DNA of 59,862 bases from a virus (taxonomy: Duplodnaviria > Caudoviricetes), in IMG/VR virus record IMGVR_UViG_3300036841_000201, positions 1-59,862 of that record; one strand, written 5' to 3'. The position numbers and the translations under genes are program-made. Positions 3,292 through 44,692 of this stretch are shown here, piece after piece (position 1 is the first letter of the stretch; each line of letters starts with the position of its first letter). The notes under the pieces were generated by a model that saw only the letters and a list, made by a program, of their open reading frames with translations, did not search any database and was not told the DNA's origin.

Positions 3292-3824
3292 CCCGCAGGG
3301 ACGTGCGGACCGGCATCGCGGAGCACTTCGGCGGTTCGACGTTCGACGACGGCGACCAGGTGTACCGGCCCACCCCGCTGGCCGCGCAGGGTTTGGCCGG
3401 CGTCGCTCCGTACTTCCAGGAGCGGTTCCGCGACGAAGTTATCGCTATTAAGGGCCTCGCCGACGGTCGAGGTCGGGGCGCCGTGATGTGCGTGCACATC
3501 GGCCAGACCAAGGAGACGCGCCACTCGACCGGCGGGATCTTCAAGGTTCCGTACGCGATCCAGCTGTACGTGTGGCACCTGTCGCTGGTCCCGACCGTGC
3601 AGGACGCCCAAGCGGACCGGGATGACCTCGTCGAGGCGATTATCGCGCGCATCCACGCCGATCCGACCCTCGGCGGAACGGTGGTGCAGGCCGGCGAGGG
3701 AGTGGACGGGATCGATATCAGCACCCCGCCGCCGGTGATCGAGCCGTCGACGTCGACGCGCGTCCGTCAGGACACGGTGATCTCCTTCGCCGCCGAGCTT
3801 TACCCGTTCCAGCCGAACATGTGA
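3288..3824 (+). CDS. Putative tail terminator/completion protein
   Basis: IHADPTLGGTV motif; position before the tail tube gene. Confidence 0.55.
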   Translation: MTRRDVRTGIAEHFGGSTFDDGDQVYRPTPLAAQGLAGVAPYFQERFRDEVIAIKGLADGRGRGAVMCVHIGQTKETRHSTGGIFKVPYAIQLYVWHLSLVPTVQDAQADRDDLVEAIIARIHADPTLGGTVVQAGEGVDGIDISTPPPVIEPSTSTRVRQDTVISFAAELYPFQPNM

Positions 3825-4108
3825 GGCCAGACGTGCCCCGATACATCTTCCAGGGCGATCACGAGCAGACCTACCCGCAGTACCTCGACGTGGCCAAGGG
3901 GTCGACCCTGGTCGCCGAGCCCGGCCAGGCGTACGAGATCGCGCAGGCCGAGGGCCTGACCGTCCCGGGCGAGCCCGACGAGGACGGGGGCACGCAGCCG
4001 GTCGAGGTCGCGCTTGCGATGCCGCCCGATGGGCGATGGACGGCTGAGCAGTCGCGTACGCGCGCGGGCCGCCGCGACACCACCACCGACACCACAGGGG
4101 AGTCCTGA
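3821..4108 (+). CDS. Hypothetical protein
   Basis: Small ORF filling the gap before the major tail gene; start may be GTG 3833. Confidence 0.55.
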   Translation: MRPDVPRYIFQGDHEQTYPQYLDVAKGSTLVAEPGQAYEIAQAEGLTVPGEPDEDGGTQPVEVALAMPPDGRWTAEQSRTRAGRRDTTTDTTGES

Positions 4109-15141: not shown

Positions 15142-15636
15142 ATGACGAAGGCCTGGGATGCCACGCTGGCCGGCGGCGTAGCCACTGTGGCGGCCGCGAT
15201 GGTCGTCGGCGCGCACCTGGCGGCGAGCGCGTACGTGGGTGTGCGGCACGAGCGGGACCTTGCCCGCGCGCAGGTCGCCGCTCTCCGGGCTGCCCGGCCG
15301 GTCGGCCAGCCGGCTCAGCCCATGCCGTCTTCAACCCCTTCATCGTCCTCCCCGGCGCGTGCCAGGTCCCCCCGTCCTGAGGCACCCGGCGCCGGGGAGG
15401 GCCAGTCTCACCCGGGCGCGCGTGCGGCCGTGCTCGTGCCCGTCAGCGCGCGGGAGACGCCGCACCCCGGCGGCGGCCGCGCGCCGGGCGGGAGTGGCAA
15501 CCCGTCCCCTGCCGGCTCGGGTGGAGGCGAGAAGACCACCGCGCCCGCCGCCGAGCAGTGCCCGGACGGCCGGCTGCTGACCGTGCGCGTCCTGCGCCTG
15601 CCCTGCAACACGGTCGTCGTCGGCGGCCGACCCTGA
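15142..15636 (+). CDS. Hypothetical membrane/secreted protein
   Basis: N-terminal hydrophobic segment, P/S/G-rich linker, C-terminal Cys pair. Confidence 0.5.
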   Translation: MTKAWDATLAGGVATVAAAMVVGAHLAASAYVGVRHERDLARAQVAALRAARPVGQPAQPMPSSTPSSSSPARARSPRPEAPGAGEGQSHPGARAAVLVPVSARETPHPGGGRAPGGSGNPSPAGSGGGEKTTAPAAEQCPDGRLLTVRVLRLPCNTVVVGGRP

Positions 15637-30841: not shown

Positions 30842-31749
30842 TGGCATGCCGCGAGATCAAGTCACAAGCCGACTACGACGCCGCGAAGACCGGTGGCGAC
30901 TGCTGCCTGCACATCGTGGACGGCCACGTGGTCCTTGATTCGTCCGACTCGGCCAGCGTGGAGGCGTACGGCTCGGCCAGCGTGCGGGCGTCCGGCTCGG
31001 CCAGCGTGGAGGCGTACGACTCGGCCAGCGTGCGGGCGTACGGCTCGGCCAGCGTGGAGGCGTACGACTCGGCCAGCGTGCGGGCGTACGACTCGGCCAG
31101 CGTGGAGGCGTCCGGCTCGGCCAGCGTGCGGGCGTACGGCTCGGCCAGCGTGGAGGCGTACGGCTCGGCCAGCGTGCGGGCGTACGGCTCGGCCAGCGTG
31201 CGGGCGTACGGCTCGGCCAGCGTGGAGGCGTACGGCTCGGCCAGCGTGGAGGCGTACGACTCGGCCAGCGTGCACGGCCATGCCAACGCCACCATCACCG
31301 GCACCCCGTACACCGCGTTGTTCCGCCATGACGACACGGTCACCCTTACCGGCGGCGTCGTCATCGAGGTTCCCAAGCTCACCGACTCCGACCCCGGCGA
31401 GTGGTGCGACTACTACGGCGTCACTCGCGAAGACGGCACCGCGGTCGTCTTCAAGGCCGTCGATGGCGACCTATGCGCGCACTACGACGGCACCCGCTAC
31501 GACGTCGGTGCAACCGTCGAAGCCACCGACTGGGACGGCGTCGCCGAGTGCGGCGGCGGCCTGCACTTCGGTCCGACACCCCGGCACGCGCGCAAGTACA
31601 ACCGGTCCGCCTCGCGGTTCCTGGCGTGCCGGGTGCTGCTGTCGGAGACGGTCACGCTCGGCGACAAGGTCAAGTCCAGAGCGTGTGAGGTACTGCACGA
31701 GGTTGACCGCGACGGCGCCCGCGTCCCTGCGACCGAGGCAGGTGCGTGA
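30841..31749 (+). CDS. Octapeptide-repeat (beta-helix-like) protein
   Basis: (SASV[E/R]A[Y/S][G/D])n followed by a C-terminal ECGGGLHF domain. Confidence 0.75.
   Translation: MACREIKSQADYDAAKTGGDCCLHIVDGHVVLDSSDSASVEAYGSASVRASGSASVEAYDSASVRAYGSASVEAYDSASVRAYDSASVEASGSASVRAYGSASVEAYGSASVRAYGSASVRAYGSASVEAYGSASVEAYDSASVHGHANATITGTPYTALFRHDDTVTLTGGVVIEVPKLTDSDPGEWCDYYGVTREDGTAVVFKAVDGDLCAHYDGTRYDVGATVEATDWDGVAECGGGLHFGPTPRHARKYNRSASRFLACRVLLSETVTLGDKVKSRACEVLHEVDRDGARVPATEAGA
30946..31272 (+). repeat. 24-bp tandem repeat, 14 copies of the TCGGCCAGCGTG core
   Basis: Counted directly; exact 24-nt period. Confidence 0.95.
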
Positions 31750-35570: not shown

Positions 35571-36004
35571 TACGCCGCCGCAAGAGCCTGAAGCGTCAGC
35601 CGCTGCGCCGTACGCCGATGCGTCGCCGCTGGCGCGACACCGGGCCCGATGAGGCCACGCGCGAGCAGGTGGGCGCACGGGACATCTGGTGCTGCGTCGT
35701 CTGCGGCCGTCACCTCGGCGCGTCCGGTTCGACCCTGCATCACCGCCGTAACCGCGGCAGCGGGGGCAGCAGCGACCCCGCGATCAACCGGCCGTCGAAC
35801 CTGCTGACCGTGTGCGGGTCCGGCACGACCGGATGCCACGGCTGGATCACCAACCGGCCTGGGGAGGCCCGCGACGCCGGGTACGTCGTGTCGCTCAACA
35901 GCACCGACAACCCGCGGGACGTGCCGGTCCGGCACGCGCTGTACGGACTGGTGTACCTCGACGACAACGGCGGCTTTGAGCATGTCGGGGGCGATGCCGC
36001 GTGA
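35567..36004 (+). CDS. HNH endonuclease-like protein
   Basis: CVVCG...HHRR...NLLTVCGSGTTGCHGWI. Confidence 0.8.
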   Translation: MIRRRKSLKRQPLRRTPMRRRWRDTGPDEATREQVGARDIWCCVVCGRHLGASGSTLHHRRNRGSGGSSDPAINRPSNLLTVCGSGTTGCHGWITNRPGEARDAGYVVSLNSTDNPRDVPVRHALYGLVYLDDNGGFEHVGGDAA

Positions 36005-36255
36005 TGCTGCCGCTGAGTTTCGTATCCCGTGACGGTCTGGCCGGGCTCGGCTTCCGCGTCCTGCGCTGCGCCCACTGCGGCCAGGACCGCCCGGCCGCCC
36101 GCTTGTTCGACGGCGAAGTCTGCGCCGTCTGCCTCCGGCCGGTCGACGAGTTGTCGGCGGTTGAGCAGCGCCTGTCTGACCACATTGAGGCCGCCACCCG
36201 GCGTGCCATTGACCGCCCCGCCGACCACACCCACTCCGGGAGCGATGCCTCATGA
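36001..36255 (+). CDS. Small zinc-finger protein
   Basis: CAHC...CAVC. Confidence 0.55.
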   Translation: MMLPLSFVSRDGLAGLGFRVLRCAHCGQDRPAARLFDGEVCAVCLRPVDELSAVEQRLSDHIEAATRRAIDRPADHTHSGSDAS

Positions 36256-36833
36256 GCAAGACCACCAAGACCACCCGGCGGGCCACATCGCAGCCGACGC
36301 CCAAACATGGCACGTCCGCCGGGTTCAACCTTCGTCACCTCGTCCGCGATGTCGTCGCATCCTCCCCGTCGCCGGACTATCCGCTGATCGCCAAGGAGGC
36401 CGCCCGCCGGATCCCGCCCGAGCACCTCGAAGCCGCGTTGATAACGGCGTTGACCGAGTACGTGCGGCACTACGCGACGACGATCCGCCCGACGATCTCC
36501 GTCCTGGCTGCGCCCGTCCAGCTCGCCGAGTCGGCGGCCCCGGCCCGGCGCCCGGGTCAGTCGCCGAAGGTCATCGGGATTCGGCAGGCGTGGCGACGGT
36601 ACCTCGACGCCCCGTTCGGCACGGCGACCGGGCAGAAGTGGCTCGGCGACTGCGACGCCGCCGACCTCATCTTCATCGCTGAGGATCTGGAGAAGAAGGC
36701 CGCCGAGAATGTGGCGAAGGCGACCGGGATCCGTGGCCTGCGCGAGGAGATGGGCCGCCACAAGGCCGCCCGGGTCCGTGACCTCCCTGACGTGGTGCTG
36801 GCCGCGTACCTCGCTGGAGGTGCGGCGGCATGA
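36252..36833 (+). CDS. Tas-adjacent hypothetical protein (carries one guide unit in its 5' end)
   Basis: 193 aa; ATGA-coupled to the Tas ORF. Confidence 0.7.
   Translation: MSKTTKTTRRATSQPTPKHGTSAGFNLRHLVRDVVASSPSPDYPLIAKEAARRIPPEHLEAALITALTEYVRHYATTIRPTISVLAAPVQLAESAAPARRPGQSPKVIGIRQAWRRYLDAPFGTATGQKWLGDCDAADLIFIAEDLEKKAAENVAKATGIRGLREEMGRHKAARVRDLPDVVLAAYLAGGAAA
36273..36324 (+). ncRNA. TIGR-like stem-loop unit 0
   Basis: ACCCGGCGGG-CCA-CATCGCAGC-CG-ACGC-CCA-AACATGGCA-CG-TCCGCCGGGT. Confidence 0.85.
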
Positions 36834-38095
36834 GCACCCCACAGACAACCCCGCAGGCCAGCCTGGGAACGACAACCAACGAGATCCCGCCTGCGGGGTC
36901 ACAGCATGGCCGGGACCAAAAGGCAAGCGCGGCCCAAATAATGGCCGTCCCGGCCACCGACTTCCCCGGCGACCAAAGTGACATCGACGCCCAAGCATGC
37001 AGCGTCGCCGGGGACTCAGGCCAGCCGACGGCCATCGGAATATCGCCGCCCATGGCAGGCGCGCCGTCGGCTGATGACACCCCCCGGGCGGCCACCGAGC
37101 TGGCGAGAACCATCGCGCAACCGCCGTCCGGGGGGAAGGAGCAGGGTCCGCCAGCGACCAACGCCTTTCCGCCGCCCAAACAACTGGTGTCGCTGGCGGA
37201 TCCATTCCTCGCCCTCGCCGCTGACGTCGTGGACGACCTCGAAAAGGTCCGCATCGCCAACGAGAACCGCCTTCGGCAACTCACTCGCACCGAGACCGAC
37301 AAGGACGGCGAAGAGCGCGGGTTCGGCCTGACCGAGGACCACCCGGACGTGGCCCGCCTGTCCGCCCTCGTGGACATGCTTGGCCAGGCCGAACACCAGG
37401 CCGTGTTGAACCTTCAGCGGCTGATGCGTAAGCATCCGCTCGGCCCGTGGATCAAGGCCACGGCCGGCGTGGGGGAGAAGCAGGCCGCCCGACTCCTTGC
37501 CGTCATCGGTGACCCGTACATTCGCCCTGAACTCGTCCGCGATGGCGTCGTCGAGCCCGCCCGACCGCGCCGCGTCTCGGAGTTGTGGGCGTACTGCGGC
37601 TATCACGTACTTCCCGCTGGCTACGCCATCGACGACACCCAGAGTCGATCCGCCAGCGGGACCGACTTCTCTGCCGACCATGGTGAGGCCGATGCCCAAA
37701 AGGCTGGCGTCGGCGGGGAGCAGGCGGGCCACTCCGACCATAACCTGAGCGATTTCCCTCGACAACGCGTCGGAGTGGCCCCAAAGCGCCGGCGTGGCAC
37801 CCGCACGAACTGGTCCACGACCGCGAAGACCAGGACGTTCCTGATCGCTGAGTCGTGCATCAAGCATCGCCAGTCCCCATTCCGCGCTGTGTACGACGCC
37901 ACCCGGGAGAAGTACGCCGACGCAGTCCACGCCATGCCGTGTGCACGCTGCGGCCCGTCCGGCAAACCGGCCCCCGCCGCCTCCCCGCTCAGCGACGGCC
38001 ACAAGCATGCCCGGGCGATGCGCGCCGTCTCCAAAGAGATCTTGAAAGCGCTGTGGCGTGAAGCCCGACGCATCCACGAAGGAGGCGACCGGTGA
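36830..38095 (+). CDS. TasA-like Nop/IS110-related RNA-binding protein (no RuvC/HNH domain evident)
   Basis: Coiled coil LEKVRIANENRL; HPLGPWI....GVGEKQAARLL; SELWAYCG; KRRRG...NW; FRAVYD..REKY; GHKHARAMRAVSKEILKALW. Confidence 0.8.
   Translation: MSTPQTTPQASLGTTTNEIPPAGSQHGRDQKASAAQIMAVPATDFPGDQSDIDAQACSVAGDSGQPTAIGISPPMAGAPSADDTPRAATELARTIAQPPSGGKEQGPPATNAFPPPKQLVSLADPFLALAADVVDDLEKVRIANENRLRQLTRTETDKDGEERGFGLTEDHPDVARLSALVDMLGQAEHQAVLNLQRLMRKHPLGPWIKATAGVGEKQAARLLAVIGDPYIRPELVRDGVVEPARPRRVSELWAYCGYHVLPAGYAIDDTQSRSASGTDFSADHGEADAQKAGVGGEQAGHSDHNLSDFPRQRVGVAPKRRRGTRTNWSTTAKTRTFLIAESCIKHRQSPFRAVYDATREKYADAVHAMPCARCGPSGKPAPAASPLSDGHKHARAMRAVSKEILKALWREARRIHEGGDR
36848..37203 (+). ncRNA. TIGR-like stem-loop array, units 1-6
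   Basis: Six units (36848-36899, 36907-36956, 36963-37014, 37022-37073, 37080-37135, 37144-37203), each stem-CCA-N9-CG-N4-CCA-N9-YG-complementary stem. Confidence 0.9.
37612..37781 (+). ncRNA. TIGR-like stem-loop array, units 7-9, inside the Tas coding region
   Basis: Units 37612-37661, 37667-37720 and 37726-37781 with the same spacing; one CTA and one CCC box variant. Confidence 0.85.
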
Positions 38096-38427
38096 GGGTC
38101 CGCATCCCCAAGCCCGTGAACCAGGCGCTCGACCGCCCCGAGGCGCTCGCCGCGGTGACCCTGCTCGCCGTCGGCGCCATCGTCGGCGCCGCAGCGGCCA
38201 TGAGCGGGTTGGCCGTGTACGTCCTCGGTGCCGCCACCGGCCTGCTCGCGGCTGGGCTCATCTACGGGGTCGCCACCGTCCGCCTGCTCGCCGACCGCAA
38301 CGCCCTGTTGGAAGAGGTCGGCCACCTCGGATACGAGCTTCGCAAGGCCAAGGCCAGCAGTTTCGCCGCCGCCCACGAACCGACAACCCGACTCCCCGCG
38401 ATCACTACTGAGAGGGGAAAGCAGTGA
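38092..38427 (+). CDS. Membrane protein
   Basis: Two hydrophobic segments; coupled to the Tas stop. Confidence 0.65.
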   Translation: MRVRIPKPVNQALDRPEALAAVTLLAVGAIVGAAAAMSGLAVYVLGAATGLLAAGLIYGVATVRLLADRNALLEEVGHLGYELRKAKASSFAAAHEPTTRLPAITTERGKQ

Positions 38428-43077: not shown

Positions 43078-43394
43078 ACCAGCCATACCGCGTGCTGGTC
43101 ACCGGATCACGCACCTGGACTGACGAGGACGCCGTACGCACCGCCATCAGCGTCGCCGTCGCCAGCCACAACGCCGAAGGCGTCGTGATCGTCCATGGTG
43201 CCTGCCCGCACGGCGCGGACGCACTCGCCGACAAGATCGCCCAGGAGATGGGTTTGCAGGTCGAGCGCTGGCCAGCCGACTGGGGCACCCACGGCCGCTC
43301 CGCGGGCTACCGCCGCAACGCCGCCATGGTCTCCCGCGGCGCCGACGTCTGTTTGGCGTTCATAGCACCGTGCGTTGATCGGTCCTCGCTATGA
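43074..43394 (+). CDS. SLOG-family (DUF2493/YspA-like) protein, possibly C-terminally short
   Basis: RVLVTGSR, VHGACPHGAD, AGYRRNAAM. Confidence 0.75.
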   Translation: MNQPYRVLVTGSRTWTDEDAVRTAISVAVASHNAEGVVIVHGACPHGADALADKIAQEMGLQVERWPADWGTHGRSAGYRRNAAMVSRGADVCLAFIAPCVDRSSL

Positions 43395-44692
43395 CCGCCG
43401 CCGTGCTCCGCGCCGACGCCCGGAACCTGCCGTTGCCGGACGGCAGCGTCGACCTCGTCTGCACCTCGCCGCCCTTCTACGCCCTCAGGGACTACAGGGA
43501 CGGCGGCGCCAGCCTGGCCGGTCAGATCGGCGCCGAGCGCACGCCGCAGGCGTACGTGGATGCGCTGCTCGACGCGACGCGCGAATGGGTGCGCGTCCTC
43601 AAGCCTGGTGGGTCGATCTTTTGCAACCTGGGCGATAAGTTCTCGGGCGCTCAGGCGCAGAGCGACGGCCGGGCCGCGCGCAGCAACTCCGCCGATTTTT
43701 GGCGGCGCACCGACCCGCGCCGCACCGGAATCCCGAACAAGTCGCTGATGCTCCTGCCCGAGCGCTACCGGGTCGCGTGCGTCGACCAACTCGGCCTAAT
43801 CGCCCGGGCCGTCGTCATCTGGGCCAAGCCCAACGGCCTGCCCGAGAGCGTCACCGACCGCGTACGCCGCTCGCATGAGGACTTCGTGCACCTGGTCAAG
43901 CAGCCCCGCTACTACAGCGCGGTAGACGAGATCCGGCAGCCTCACACGCGTGTCGACCCGCCGCGCCGGCTCGGTACGCGCAACCAGACCCAGCGCCACA
44001 CGGCAGCCACGGACAACACCGGGTGGAAGGACAACGCGGTCGCGCACCACCCGCTCGGCGCGCTGCCCGGCAGCGTGTGGGAAGTCGCATCCCAGCCGTT
44101 CAGCCCGCCCGTGCACGTCGCGCACGCCCGATGCTGCGGCGGCCAAGACAAGACGTGCGAGCGCGGCCTCGCGCACTACGCCGCGTTCCCGCCCGCGCTG
44201 GTGCGCCGCATCGTGCTCGGCTGGTCGCCGCCCGGCATCTGCACCGAATGCGGCGAAGGTCGCCGTCCAGTCGCGACGGTCGAAGACAGGAGCGCATACA
44301 GAGACCTCTCGCTGACGCCGTCTCAGGTGGGCCTACACGCCGAGGGCGCCTGGCATGACGGCATCGAGACCAGCACTCTTGCCCGGCCGGGCTGGCGCAA
44401 GACTGGGCGGCCACAGCACAGCATCACCGGCTACGCCTGCGCCTGCCCCACCCCGGACGCGCCCACCCGCCCAAGCTTTGTAGTTGACCCTTTCGGCGGA
44501 ACCGGGACCGTGGCCATGGTCGCGTCTGTGCTCGGCCGCCGCGGACTGTCCTTCGACCTGAGCCACGACTATGGCCGGTTGGCGAGATGGCGTACGGCAG
44601 ATCCGCGTGAGCGCGCCCGGGCGGCCGGCGTAACCCCGCCCCCACCCGTCTCGCCGGCACAGTCCGGCCTGTTCGAGCTGGAGGCCGGATGA
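43391..44692 (+). CDS. N4-C/N6-A DNA methyltransferase (beta class)
   Basis: TSPPF catalytic motif, IWAKPN, HYAAFP, VVDPFGGTGT. Confidence 0.88.
   Translation: MTAAVLRADARNLPLPDGSVDLVCTSPPFYALRDYRDGGASLAGQIGAERTPQAYVDALLDATREWVRVLKPGGSIFCNLGDKFSGAQAQSDGRAARSNSADFWRRTDPRRTGIPNKSLMLLPERYRVACVDQLGLIARAVVIWAKPNGLPESVTDRVRRSHEDFVHLVKQPRYYSAVDEIRQPHTRVDPPRRLGTRNQTQRHTAATDNTGWKDNAVAHHPLGALPGSVWEVASQPFSPPVHVAHARCCGGQDKTCERGLAHYAAFPPALVRRIVLGWSPPGICTECGEGRRPVATVEDRSAYRDLSLTPSQVGLHAEGAWHDGIETSTLARPGWRKTGRPQHSITGYACACPTPDAPTRPSFVVDPFGGTGTVAMVASVLGRRGLSFDLSHDYGRLARWRTADPRERARAAGVTPPPPVSPAQSGLFELEAG

Follow-up and report, generated by a model that had tools for sequence, protein, structure and literature searches.

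The segment 37612–37781 of the DNA analyzed here, a window of 59,862 nt that represents a ~60-kb soil actinophage contig, is best explained (probability about 0.85) as a three-unit TIGR sub-array of the stem-loop type, which lies in frame within the wedge loop of TasA, a Tas protein without a nuclease, with the same bases serving both RNA and protein. According to this model, the plus strand RNA of each of the three units (U7 to U9) would form a stem of 10–13 bp closing a 30-nt loop, and the loop would carry two 9-nt spacers, with a CCA box on one side of each and a CG box on the other. U7 to U9 and the seven units upstream of them would mature to tigRNAs of roughly 50–56 nt, which would load TasA dimers and guide them to DNA, where one spacer would pair with each strand. 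As TasA lacks a nuclease domain, RNA-guided binding and transcriptional repression would be the likely outcome. Translation would read through the same stretch and produce a disordered extension of the wedge loop of ~58 aa. In Tas complexes of known structure, it is the wedge loop that contacts the tigRNA. That the units of the window are transcribed and processed and that they mediate DNA binding and repression is supposed by analogy with published relatives. In sequencing-run listings, 37612–37781 was found in one DNA run, a soil metagenome that may be its source, and in no RNA run; the G+C content of the DNA is 68%.

The tasA gene (36830..38095, + strand) encodes 421 aa with a Nop domain and without a nuclease domain, as judged from phrog_4285, profile and Foldseek matches. 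Its ATG overlaps the stop codon of the upstream gene (ATGA), and a GGAGG sequence is located 9 nt 5′ of the ATG. The match to phrog_4285 (E 7e-95) spans aa 122–418 only, and aa 1–125 are encoded by guide units. Based on the AlphaFold model and the alignment with 9mty, the first part of the Nop core (37205..37603, +) comprises a coiled coil, a helix-hairpin-helix region and a beta hairpin and ends with LWAYCGY. The second part (37782..38095, +) consists of APKRRRG...NWS, C-terminal helices and a Cys/His-rich segment. The upstream gene in the ORF list (36252..36833, +) is a phage gene of unknown function (phrog_4604, PHROG E 5.7e-15). The gene caller of the protein database placed the tasA start at M38, resulting in a protein of 384 aa. 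The locus lies within a phage early-gene block and not within an insertion sequence.

Profile comparison and structure prediction identify the protein as a nuclease-less Tas (TasA) with a Tas-type Nop domain. A profile built from 31 homologues matched the solved chains of TasR (9mty, E 3.4e-15) and TasH (E 3.6e-7). The AlphaFold model of TasA (pLDDT 81) retrieved TasR and TasH at Foldseek ranks 1–10 with a probability of 1.00 (E 7e-8 to 1.5e-5), followed by IS621 and then Nop5/56/58. These matches bear out the assignment to the Tas Nop-domain proteins in the preliminary description of this DNA. No Pfam family was found in the 421 aa of TasA, and searches of Pfam and PHROG did not detect a RuvC or HNH domain. 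The dual-repeat TIGR systems with TasR and TasH (PDB 9mty, 9w04, 21kl) have the Nop-domain fold and the dual-spacer logic in common with the TasA described here. In contrast to it, they have a RuvC or HNH nuclease and guides of 36 nt, their edge and loop repeats are conserved, and their wedge is compact, with ~2 residues at the position where this TasA has 58. An IS110-family transposase was considered and rejected, as an N-terminal RuvC-like (DEDD) domain was not detected and the model of aa 126–421 matched IS621 weakly. The C-terminal RNA-binding domain of the IS110/IS621 bridge-RNA recombinases is related to TasA (Foldseek E 0.025–0.06), whereas the tasA locus contains neither a RuvC-like catalytic domain nor a bridge RNA. 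These recombinases are the origin of the database label "transposase" in the PHROG family and in GenBank phage homologues. The fold of Nop5 and Nop56/58 from box C/D s(no)RNPs is distantly similar to the TasA Nop domain (Foldseek E 0.5–3). Like the tig units, the RNAs of these particles have two guide segments, each flanked by short boxes; they target RNA, while the characterized Tas systems target DNA.

The insert is located between LWAYCGY and APKRRRG of ORF 36830..38095, is in frame and contains no stop codon, as described before; its length is 58 codons. The open frame alone is weak evidence, since a second plus strand frame (ORF 37497..37748) likewise has no stop codon across most of this stretch. 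Stronger evidence comes from the conserved protein motifs, which resume in the same frame on both sides. In the alignment with 9mty the insert falls between residues 214 and 217, and the two motifs are ~2 residues apart in that protein. As the wedge has been defined as G210–K230 of 9mty in the accessible text of Xu et al. (bioRxiv 10.64898/2026.09.09.750476), the aligned insertion site corresponds to the Tas wedge loop. A short loop had been proposed as the normal state in this family, in agreement with the ~2 residues in 9mty and with 37 loci, among 72 for which DNA was available, whose loops do not exceed 5 aa. In the AlphaFold model, pLDDT stayed below 50 throughout the insert and mostly exceeded 90 in the surrounding residues, and the insert peptide is thus predicted to be disordered. 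This low confidence and the variable length of the insert speak against a conserved folded subdomain. GC3 of the insert was 0.71 compared with 0.79–0.91 in neighboring genes. Such a weakened codon-position signal fits dual use of the sequence but also a poorly constrained linker.

The three guide units that had been proposed inside tasA were confirmed by their anatomy, by RNA folding and by a covariance model trained on 99 units from other loci, all located outside the reading frames of Tas proteins. The 170 nt from 37612 to 37781 consist of three hairpins and two 6-nt linkers and nothing else, and the three loops are exactly 30 nt long. U7 (37612..37661, +; 35.2 bits, E 1.2e-5) has a 10-bp stem and a loop of the form TA-N9-CG-N4-CCA-N9-C, in which box C1 is CTA rather than CCA. 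U8 (37668..37719, +; 38.1 bits, E 2.7e-6) has four canonical boxes and 11 pairs including two G-U pairs, which can form solely in the plus strand RNA; a third G-U is present at the stem end. U9 (37726..37781, +; 27.1 bits, E 7.6e-4) has a perfect 13-bp stem, and its box C2 is CCC rather than CCA. Both degenerate boxes named in the preliminary description are therefore present. The 3′ arm of U9 encodes VGVA and runs into the conserved APKRRRG motif.

Seven further units precede the sub-array. U1 to U6 form a tandem series at 36848..37203 on the plus strand (36848–36899, 36907–36956, 36963–37014, 37022–37073, 37080–37135 and 37144–37203) with covariance model E values of 4.5e-9 to 6.3e-7. They occupy codons 7–125 in the 5′ part of tasA in mixed phases, and the codon-position signal of this region is weak (GC1/2/3 = 0.67/0.62/0.76). 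In U0 (36273..36324, +; 41.3 bits, E 5.4e-7), a stem of 11 pairs closes a 30-nt loop with four canonical boxes. U0 resides within the first 25 codons of the upstream gene, which has a GC3 of 0.88 and whose phrog_4604 match starts at aa 26, directly after U0. This unit was absent from the earlier unit numbering. All ten units display the architecture CCA-N9-CG-N4-CCA-N9-CG with single box deviations in U6 (a T preceding the closing G), U7 and U9. Their stems of 10–15 pairs differ in sequence, and the linkers measure 6–8 nt. A CUU motif has been reported at tigRNA processing sites; CTT was found directly at the 5′ stem base in three of the ten units (U3, U7 and U8).

DNA with 68% G+C is rich in open frames and short palindromes, which raises the question of a chance or compositional artefact. 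The probability of such an artefact is negligible in view of the following results. Perfect stems of at least 9 bp that close a loop of exactly 30 nt occur eight times in the 59,862 nt, and seven of these eight cluster at the array, within 36848–37781. The RNA from 37604 to 37790 folded into three hairpins with −87.2 kcal/mol (z = −4.23), and none of 200 shuffled sequences folded as well. On the contig, the independently trained covariance model returned exactly ten unit hits, all on the plus strand, with E values of 1e-5 to 8e-4 for U7 to U9; the best match outside the array reached 19.3 bits (E 0.04). Moreover, the four canonical boxes occurred in none of 64 background hairpins. The eighth perfect hairpin, at 15347–15400 with a 12-bp stem and a 30-nt loop, was discarded as a unit because it lacks the boxes (11.8–14.1 bits). 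A CRISPR array was also discarded, as no tandem repeat was found in 36250–37800 and the direct-repeat families of the region are short and two-copy. No Rfam family was found in 36000–38300 at E ≤ 1.

As had been predicted for homologous Tas proteins, the insert varies in unit-sized steps that preserve the frame. Among 119 homologues the loop length is quantized at ~0, 19, 40, 60 and 80 aa, with one loop of ≤10 aa, three of 17–24 aa, 69 of 34–44 aa, 42 of 56–63 aa, four of 76–80 aa and none of any other length. The frame was kept, without a stop codon, at all 72 loci with DNA; a scan of genome contigs yielded four loci. At the 72 loci, three units were present in each of the five inserts of 56–60 aa, the 22 inserts of 34–42 aa contained two units (16 loci) or one unit (6 loci), and the 37 loops of ≤5 aa contained none. 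Wedge-unit number among the relatives ranges from 0 to ~4 and changed repeatedly on the tree. Of 30 spacings between units, 29 measure 57, 60, 63 or 66 nt, and 58 of 60 intragenic units share a single codon phase at the loop start, which can be attributed to in-frame duplication of a founder unit.

Covariation within the inserts points to selection on the RNA. Compensatory changes were found at 14 of 17 pairs in 20 two-unit inserts, in which 93.2% of the cells were paired compared with 76.6% after shuffling; none of 500 shuffles reached the observed value. Double changes occurred in 63 cells compared with 21.7 in the shuffles, and slid partners gave 31–61%. Among the 45 pairs of the five inserts with three units, 23 were compensatory. 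These substitution patterns provide evidence that the intragenic RNA structure is under selection, and the stem changes alter the encoded amino acids. They also bear on the possibility that selection acts on the insert as a peptide repeat (PAG-H/Q...D-T/A-Q/H...) and that RNA pairing is a by-product of its codons. The insert peptides of the homologues do have recurrent residues at the box positions, and the shared codon phase might be taken in favor of such a repeat. However, the recurrent residues are exactly those that the box nucleotides force (CAN = His/Gln, GAN = Asp/Glu), and a founder unit duplicated in frame already accounts for the single phase. The two sides of a stem pair change jointly and thereby alter the amino acids, residues encoded by the spacers are at random identity, and the identical nucleotide architecture is present at non-coding positions. 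A peptide repeat as the primary object of selection is therefore extremely unlikely.

The conservation pattern within the units resembles that of guide arrays. Pairwise identity was 0.26–0.31 in the spacers, 0.63–0.67 in the stems and 0.54–0.75 in the flanking coding sequence; the box columns were invariant or nearly so and the spacers hypervariable. A census based on hairpins only, which comprised 62 intragenic, 290 upstream and 64 background hairpins, revealed an identical box consensus in the intragenic and upstream hairpins of the relatives. All four boxes were canonical in 42 of 62 intragenic and 166 of 290 upstream hairpins. The preliminary description had suggested ageing of the units, which does not hold as a general reading given these proportions. 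In the window itself, U7 to U9 do have the three lowest covariance model scores of the ten units, and the deviations seen in U7 (T at loop position 1) and U9 (C at position 20) are rare, occurring in 2% and 5% of the 62 intragenic hairpins, respectively. Considering both the rare deviations and the low scores, some of the three may be weakened guides.

The same observations could mean that the units are relics, which once spread into the wedge loop and are now tolerated as a disordered linker but no longer matured or used as guides. Inserts without detectable hairpins exist at two loci (L058, 46 aa; L029, 24 aa). Furthermore, when the contig was searched on both strands for spacer A beside the reverse complement of spacer B, in both orders and with gaps of 0–2 nt, no target of U7 to U9 was found at ≤2 mismatches. 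The same search gave two near-matches for U5, each with two mismatches; these candidate sites lie in the methyltransferase gene. Decay is nevertheless difficult to reconcile with intragenic stems that stay paired through compensatory changes across loci, with boxes as canonical as those of extragenic units, with spacers that turn over while stems and boxes persist, and with the fully canonical U8. In addition, small-RNA reads from coding-sequence units that map to the wedge loop are described for Bifidobacterium longum TasA in the accessible text of Xu et al. (10.64898/2026.09.09.750476). Taken together, these data make relics improbable. In a comparison with 430 units from other loci, no shared spacer pairs were detected; the best pairs had 5–6 mismatches out of 18, with a null 5th percentile of 6. 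Single-spacer near-matches were few, for example spacer A of U9 and a unit of the L001 insert with one mismatch.

Three stable hairpins within a coding sequence might also act in cis on the tasA message, by ribosome pausing or through mRNA half-life, and not as guides. A scan for sigma-70-type promoters in 35900–38400 gave no site with 0.2 expected, although the consensus may not suit the host. Lack of a promoter-like site in this region would be in line with a role in cis and suggests that a long transcript probably includes the units. A pure cis role, however, leaves the loops of exactly 30 nt, the two box pairs, which are the same as in extragenic guide units, and the hypervariable 9-nt spacers unexplained, and we regard it as very improbable.

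If the units serve as guides, maturation of those in the wedge might destroy the tasA message and thereby couple guide supply to TasA synthesis, as we infer in line with the possible negative autoregulation put forward in the preliminary description. An extension of this idea, which we consider speculative and rather unlikely, is that the wedge sub-array acts as a dosage circuit. Each guide from U7 to U9 would cost one tasA message, a message under translation would escape processing, and the number of units would set the ratio of TasA to guide. If this were true, a change in a wedge spacer would also rewrite the peptide that lies against the guide, and guide repertoire and protein surface would be mechanically linked. 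Natural alleles with 0, 1, 2, 3 and 4 units would make the dosage circuit directly testable.

The preliminary description left it as a question whether intragenic arrays of this kind had been described, and they have. Stem-loop tigRNAs in frame in disordered segments are reported in the accessible text of Xu et al. (bioRxiv 10.64898/2026.09.09.750476, September 2026). According to the same text, arrays in tas genes occur at the 5′ end, at the 3′ end or internally, guide maturation is suggested to be linked with Tas translation, and the choice between processing and internal promoters for intragenic units is left undecided. RNA-guided repression by TasA has been demonstrated. As the class is already in print, the window represents a further example and opens no new field. 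B. longum TasA, as far as described there, resembles the TasA of the window in being nuclease-less, in its actinobacterial setting and in having units upstream and in frame in a disordered wedge loop. By description, the figure legend for B. longum gives two wedge units, compared with three in the window. The window differs further from that account in that six additional units occupy the 5′ part of the tasA frame and a seventh the neighboring gene, so that none is intergenic. The TasA array on a Peromyscus leucopus gut contig (Faure et al. 2025, Science, PMC12045711), in its accessible description, is similar in that its units are individual guides and its TasA has no nuclease. There, three sub-arrays surround the gene with an intergenic region between them, whereas the units of the window lie within reading frames, and the CCA and CG boxes of the window's clade set it apart from the P. 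leucopus array.

The window adds a clean actinophage example with all ten units inside reading frames. Dual coding of a guide array and of the reading frame for the guide-binding protein in one DNA is unusual and raises the question whether effector synthesis is traded against guide supply. On the comparative side, the gain is a wedge loop that grows and shrinks in frame-preserving steps of one unit, from about 0 to 4, with intragenic spacers as variable as any and with units no more degenerate than extragenic ones. Homologues in Mycobacterium and Gordonia phages are labeled "transposase", "DNA binding domain protein" or "hypothetical protein". Such labels conceal that well-studied phage collections, which would be easily accessible to experiments, contain an RNA-guided system.

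The coding region of tasA contains three in-frame units of the guide type. Segment 37612-37781 consists of three hairpins on the + strand separated by two 6-nt linkers: U7 (37612-37661) with a 10-bp stem, U8 (37668-37719) with 11 pairs, and U9 (37726-37781) with a 13-bp stem. Because two of its pairs are G-U, U8 can pair fully only as + strand RNA. All three loops are exactly 30 nt long and read CA-N9-CG-N4-CCA-N9-C; counting in the C that ends the 5′ arm and the G that opens the 3′ arm, this makes two symmetric halves, CCA-N9-CG. As proposed in the preliminary description, the insert is in frame and free of stop codons between the LWAYCGY and APKRRRG motifs of ORF 36830..38095 (421 aa), and two boxes are degenerate, the first of U7 being CTA and the second of U9 CCC. 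The open frame over the insert is little evidence alone, because the region has 68% G+C and a second + frame is also open across most of it.

A 30-nt loop closed by a perfect stem of 9 bp or more occurred eight times in the 59,862-nt window, seven of them within 36848-37781. The eighth hairpin (15347-15400) lacks the boxes and was rejected as a guide unit. Folding of 37604-37790 yielded three hairpins with -87.2 kcal/mol (z = -4.23), equalled by none of 200 shuffles. A covariance model trained on 99 units outside Tas reading frames of other loci, none from the window, was run with filters off and gave exactly ten significant matches in the contig, every one on the + strand. Seven are upstream units (36272-37200; E 4.5e-9 to 6.3e-7), followed by U8 (38.1 bits, E 2.7e-6), U7 (35.2 bits, E 1.2e-5) and U9 (27.1 bits, E 7.6e-4); the next-best match reached 19.3 bits (E 0.04). 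No Rfam family matched at the locus (36000-38300).

A Pfam search of the tasA ORF returned no family, and the product matched phrog_4285, labelled 'transposase', across aa 122-418. Compared with solved structures, a profile built on 31 homologues matched TasR 9mty (E 3.4e-15) and TasH (E 3.6e-7). Foldseek ranked TasR and TasH first for the AlphaFold model of aa 126-421 (pLDDT 81.1, pTM 0.74), then IS621 and ISCro4, then Nop5/56/58. As no nuclease domain is present, the product was classified as TasA. In the 9mty alignment, the last residue of LWAYAGYSVD is 214 and the first of KVQKRKKG is 217. Both positions fall inside G210-K230, the wedge of TaTasR according to Xu et al. (bioRxiv 10.64898/2026.09.09.750476), and thus the insert lies within the wedge loop. 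Disorder is predicted for it, as model residues 137-197 have pLDDT values under 50 and the flanks mostly exceed 90. Elsewhere in the protein, a His, two Cys and a further His (H242, C246, C249 and H266 in fragment numbering; ...H..MPCARCGP...GHKH...) are invariant in the 31 homologues. They lie between the last helices (37900-38010, TasA aa about 367-393) and possibly form a small zinc site, which TasR 9mty lacks in the alignment.

The distance between the two motifs was expected to vary in frame-preserving steps of unit size, which was borne out in the relatives. A protein search gave 1,917 matches, the best 120 of which were examined (119 excluding the window's own protein). These 119 of the matches listed fell into discrete classes of ≤10 aa (1), 17-24 aa (3), 34-44 aa (69), 56-63 aa (42) and 76-80 aa (4), with none between, equivalent to about 0, 1, 2, 3 and 4 units at 19-20 codons each. 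At the DNA level, 72 loci with both flanks were compared (4 genomes, 2 phage records, 65 IMG/VR records and the window itself; L069, whose contig ends within the gene, was left out). The frame was preserved in 72/72 loci and no insert contained a stop codon. Wedge units were absent from 37 loci with at most 5 aa and from L072 (11 aa), whereas L028 (19 aa) had one, the five loci with 56-60 aa had three each and L019 (81 aa) had four; among 22 loci with 34-42 aa, two units were detected in 16 and one in six. Exceptions were L003 (46 aa, one unit), L010 (49 aa, two) and L015 (73 aa, two detected), together with L029 and L058 (below). In nearly all loci, guide units also flanked the gene, upstream as well as downstream. 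The 24-aa wedge insert of L029 (locus 2876-2947) is an unrelated peptide with no units. That of L058 (46 aa, locus 1961-2098) had no detected guide hairpins and a peptide that still looks unit-like, and possibly represents a decayed sub-array.

A quick tree was calculated for 60 Tas cores without the insert, after removal of duplicates and of three rows whose extrapolated core contained a stop. It required 18 changes of unit class (minimum possible 4) compared to a shuffled mean of 25.8, and 0/200 shuffles were as low. On well-supported branches alone, the 0-unit class must have changed at least 4 times. Repeated gain and loss of wedge units is indicated, with 28 of 57 inner branches unresolved and therefore no exact count.

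The structural reading of the insert as wedge-loop guide units is supported, and comparison across loci shows the intragenic hairpins to be under selection as RNA. RNAalifold recovered both stems from an alignment of 20 two-unit inserts, with compensatory double changes in 14 of 17 pairs. Pairing was observed in 93.2% of cells vs 76.6% in shuffles and double changes in 63 cells vs 21.7, values reached in 0/500 shuffles, the structure being somewhat favoured as it was derived from the alignment on which it was tested. Sliding the partners by 1-3 columns reduced pairing to 31-61%. Five three-unit inserts showed compensatory changes in 23/45 pairs. The spacers are hypervariable: their pairwise identity was 0.26-0.31 across all four, against 0.63-0.67 for the stems and 0.54-0.75 for the coding sequence on either side.

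A hairpin census based on geometry alone, with the motif filter off, gave the consensus CCA-N9-CGA-NN-CCCA-N9-CG for 62 intragenic hairpins. All four boxes were canonical in 42/62 intragenic, 166/290 upstream, 28/82 downstream and 0/64 background hairpins. The proposal that the units of the insert are ageing therefore does not extend to the intragenic class, which is not decayed relative to upstream units; it retains some ground for U7 and U9, whose deviations are rare (2% and 5% of intragenic hairpins). Spacer sharing between the window and other loci did not exceed the null level. At 37739-37768, spacer A of U9, the third wedge unit, differs by one base from that of the first wedge unit of L001 (at 3400-3429), the closest relative (Streptosporangiaceae MAG, Tas 71% identical), and the spacer B regions of the two units appear related after a shift of 1 nt. 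This likeness is a hint that loops can pass from one unit position to another. L004, a Gordonia sedimidis contig, carries a chromosomal TasA with a short wedge, probably in a prophage, with 3-4 units upstream and five directly downstream of the gene (locus 2683-2925 and 3698-3993); the downstream stems are nearly identical to each other (TGCC..GG.GC) in contrast to the variable stems elsewhere.

Intragenic loops started in a single codon phase in 58/60 units (69 distinct loci) and were spaced by 57, 60, 63 or 66 nt in 29/30 cases. Upstream units occupied all three phases (125/62/123) with aperiodic spacings of 53-64 nt. No special cause has to be assumed for the single phase: if units multiply by tandem duplication under the need to keep the frame, every copy takes over the phase of its founder. 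Boxes in that phase encode His/Gln (CAN) and Asp/Glu (GAN), which accounts for the recurrent residues of the insert peptides. GC3 was 0.71 in the insert, 0.76 in the 5′ array part and 0.79-0.91 in neighbouring genes. Ahead of the Nop core, the open stretch had a median length of 62 codons in the Tas frame vs 25 and 24 in the other frames, and 159/310 upstream units lay inside this open Tas frame.

The contig derives from a soil metagenome, and no RNA sequencing run was found to contain the segment. The locus is surrounded by phage early genes coding for a RecT-like protein, an HNH endonuclease, two DNA methyltransferases and a RuvC-like resolvase. At 36830, the tasA ATG and the stop codon of the preceding gene overlap (ATGA), with GGAGG 9 nt upstream of the ATG; a gene caller in the protein database placed the start at M38 instead. 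With either start, most of U1-U6 (36848-37203) fall within the 5′ part of the frame. The tenth unit, U0 (36273-36324; 11-pair stem, 30-nt loop, four canonical boxes, covariance model E 5.4e-7), occupies codons 8-25 of the upstream gene (ORF 36252..36833), whose match to phrog_4604 begins at aa 26, after the U0 codons. It is a guide unit within the reading frame of a non-tas gene. Intergenic units do not occur in this phage. A tandem repeat at 30941-31273 (24 nt x 13.8 copies or 48 nt x 6.9, 89-94% matches) is unrelated to the guide units.

According to published work on relatives (Faure et al., PMC12045711; Xu et al.), stem-loop arrays are transcribed and then cut to single-hairpin tigRNAs, units inside the Bifidobacterium longum TasA coding sequence give small RNAs (Xu et al.), and TasA RNPs bind DNA through both spacers and repress transcription. 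Maturation of U7-U9 out of the tasA message would sever it, and guide output might then be traded against TasA synthesis, in line with the negative autoregulation suggested in the preliminary description. Xu et al. raise the same trade-off as a possibility, with internal promoters as the alternative. A scan of 35900-38400 for sigma-70-like promoters found none, which is weak evidence on this point. Among the ten units, only U3, U7 and U8 carry CTT at the stem base, corresponding to the CUU motif reported at processing sites. Tandem-spacer targets for U7-U9 were not found in the contig at ≤2 mismatches. U5 (37080-37135) has two near-matches on the - strand (43966-43984 and 44040-44058), 74 nt apart and in opposite half-site order. 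Both fall in 43391..44692, a DNA methyltransferase gene, and both show 2 mismatches and a gap of 1 nt. Shuffling the spacers 300 times gave 0.18 such matches on average, with at least two in five shuffles and two within 200 nt in none. The pair is a weak lead, found post hoc, to a possible self-target of U5.

Stem-loop TIGR arrays with TasA were already reported by Faure et al. (2025), and intragenic arrays of this kind are already described as a class by Xu et al., the only result of a full-text literature search for 'tigRNA' and 'intragenic'. The finding is biologically striking, and its incremental part comprises points that these descriptions are not known to contain: the quantised series of 0-4 units within this clade (the supplementary tables of Xu et al. 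may list the clade or contig), the covariation statistics and single codon phase of intragenic units, their being no more degenerate than extragenic ones, and the unit within a neighbouring gene. Homologues occur in 90 phage records (83 Mycobacterium, 5 Gordonia, 1 Rhodococcus, 1 Arthrobacter), where they are labelled transposase, DNA binding domain protein, HTH protein or hypothetical protein. The well-studied phages of these records appear to carry unannotated TIGR-TasA systems. In Mycobacterium phage Pari (L006, NC_028874.1), gp23 (236 aa) has a short wedge, and the 334-nt gap before the gene contains guide-type hairpins (locus 2159-2209 and 2357-2404).
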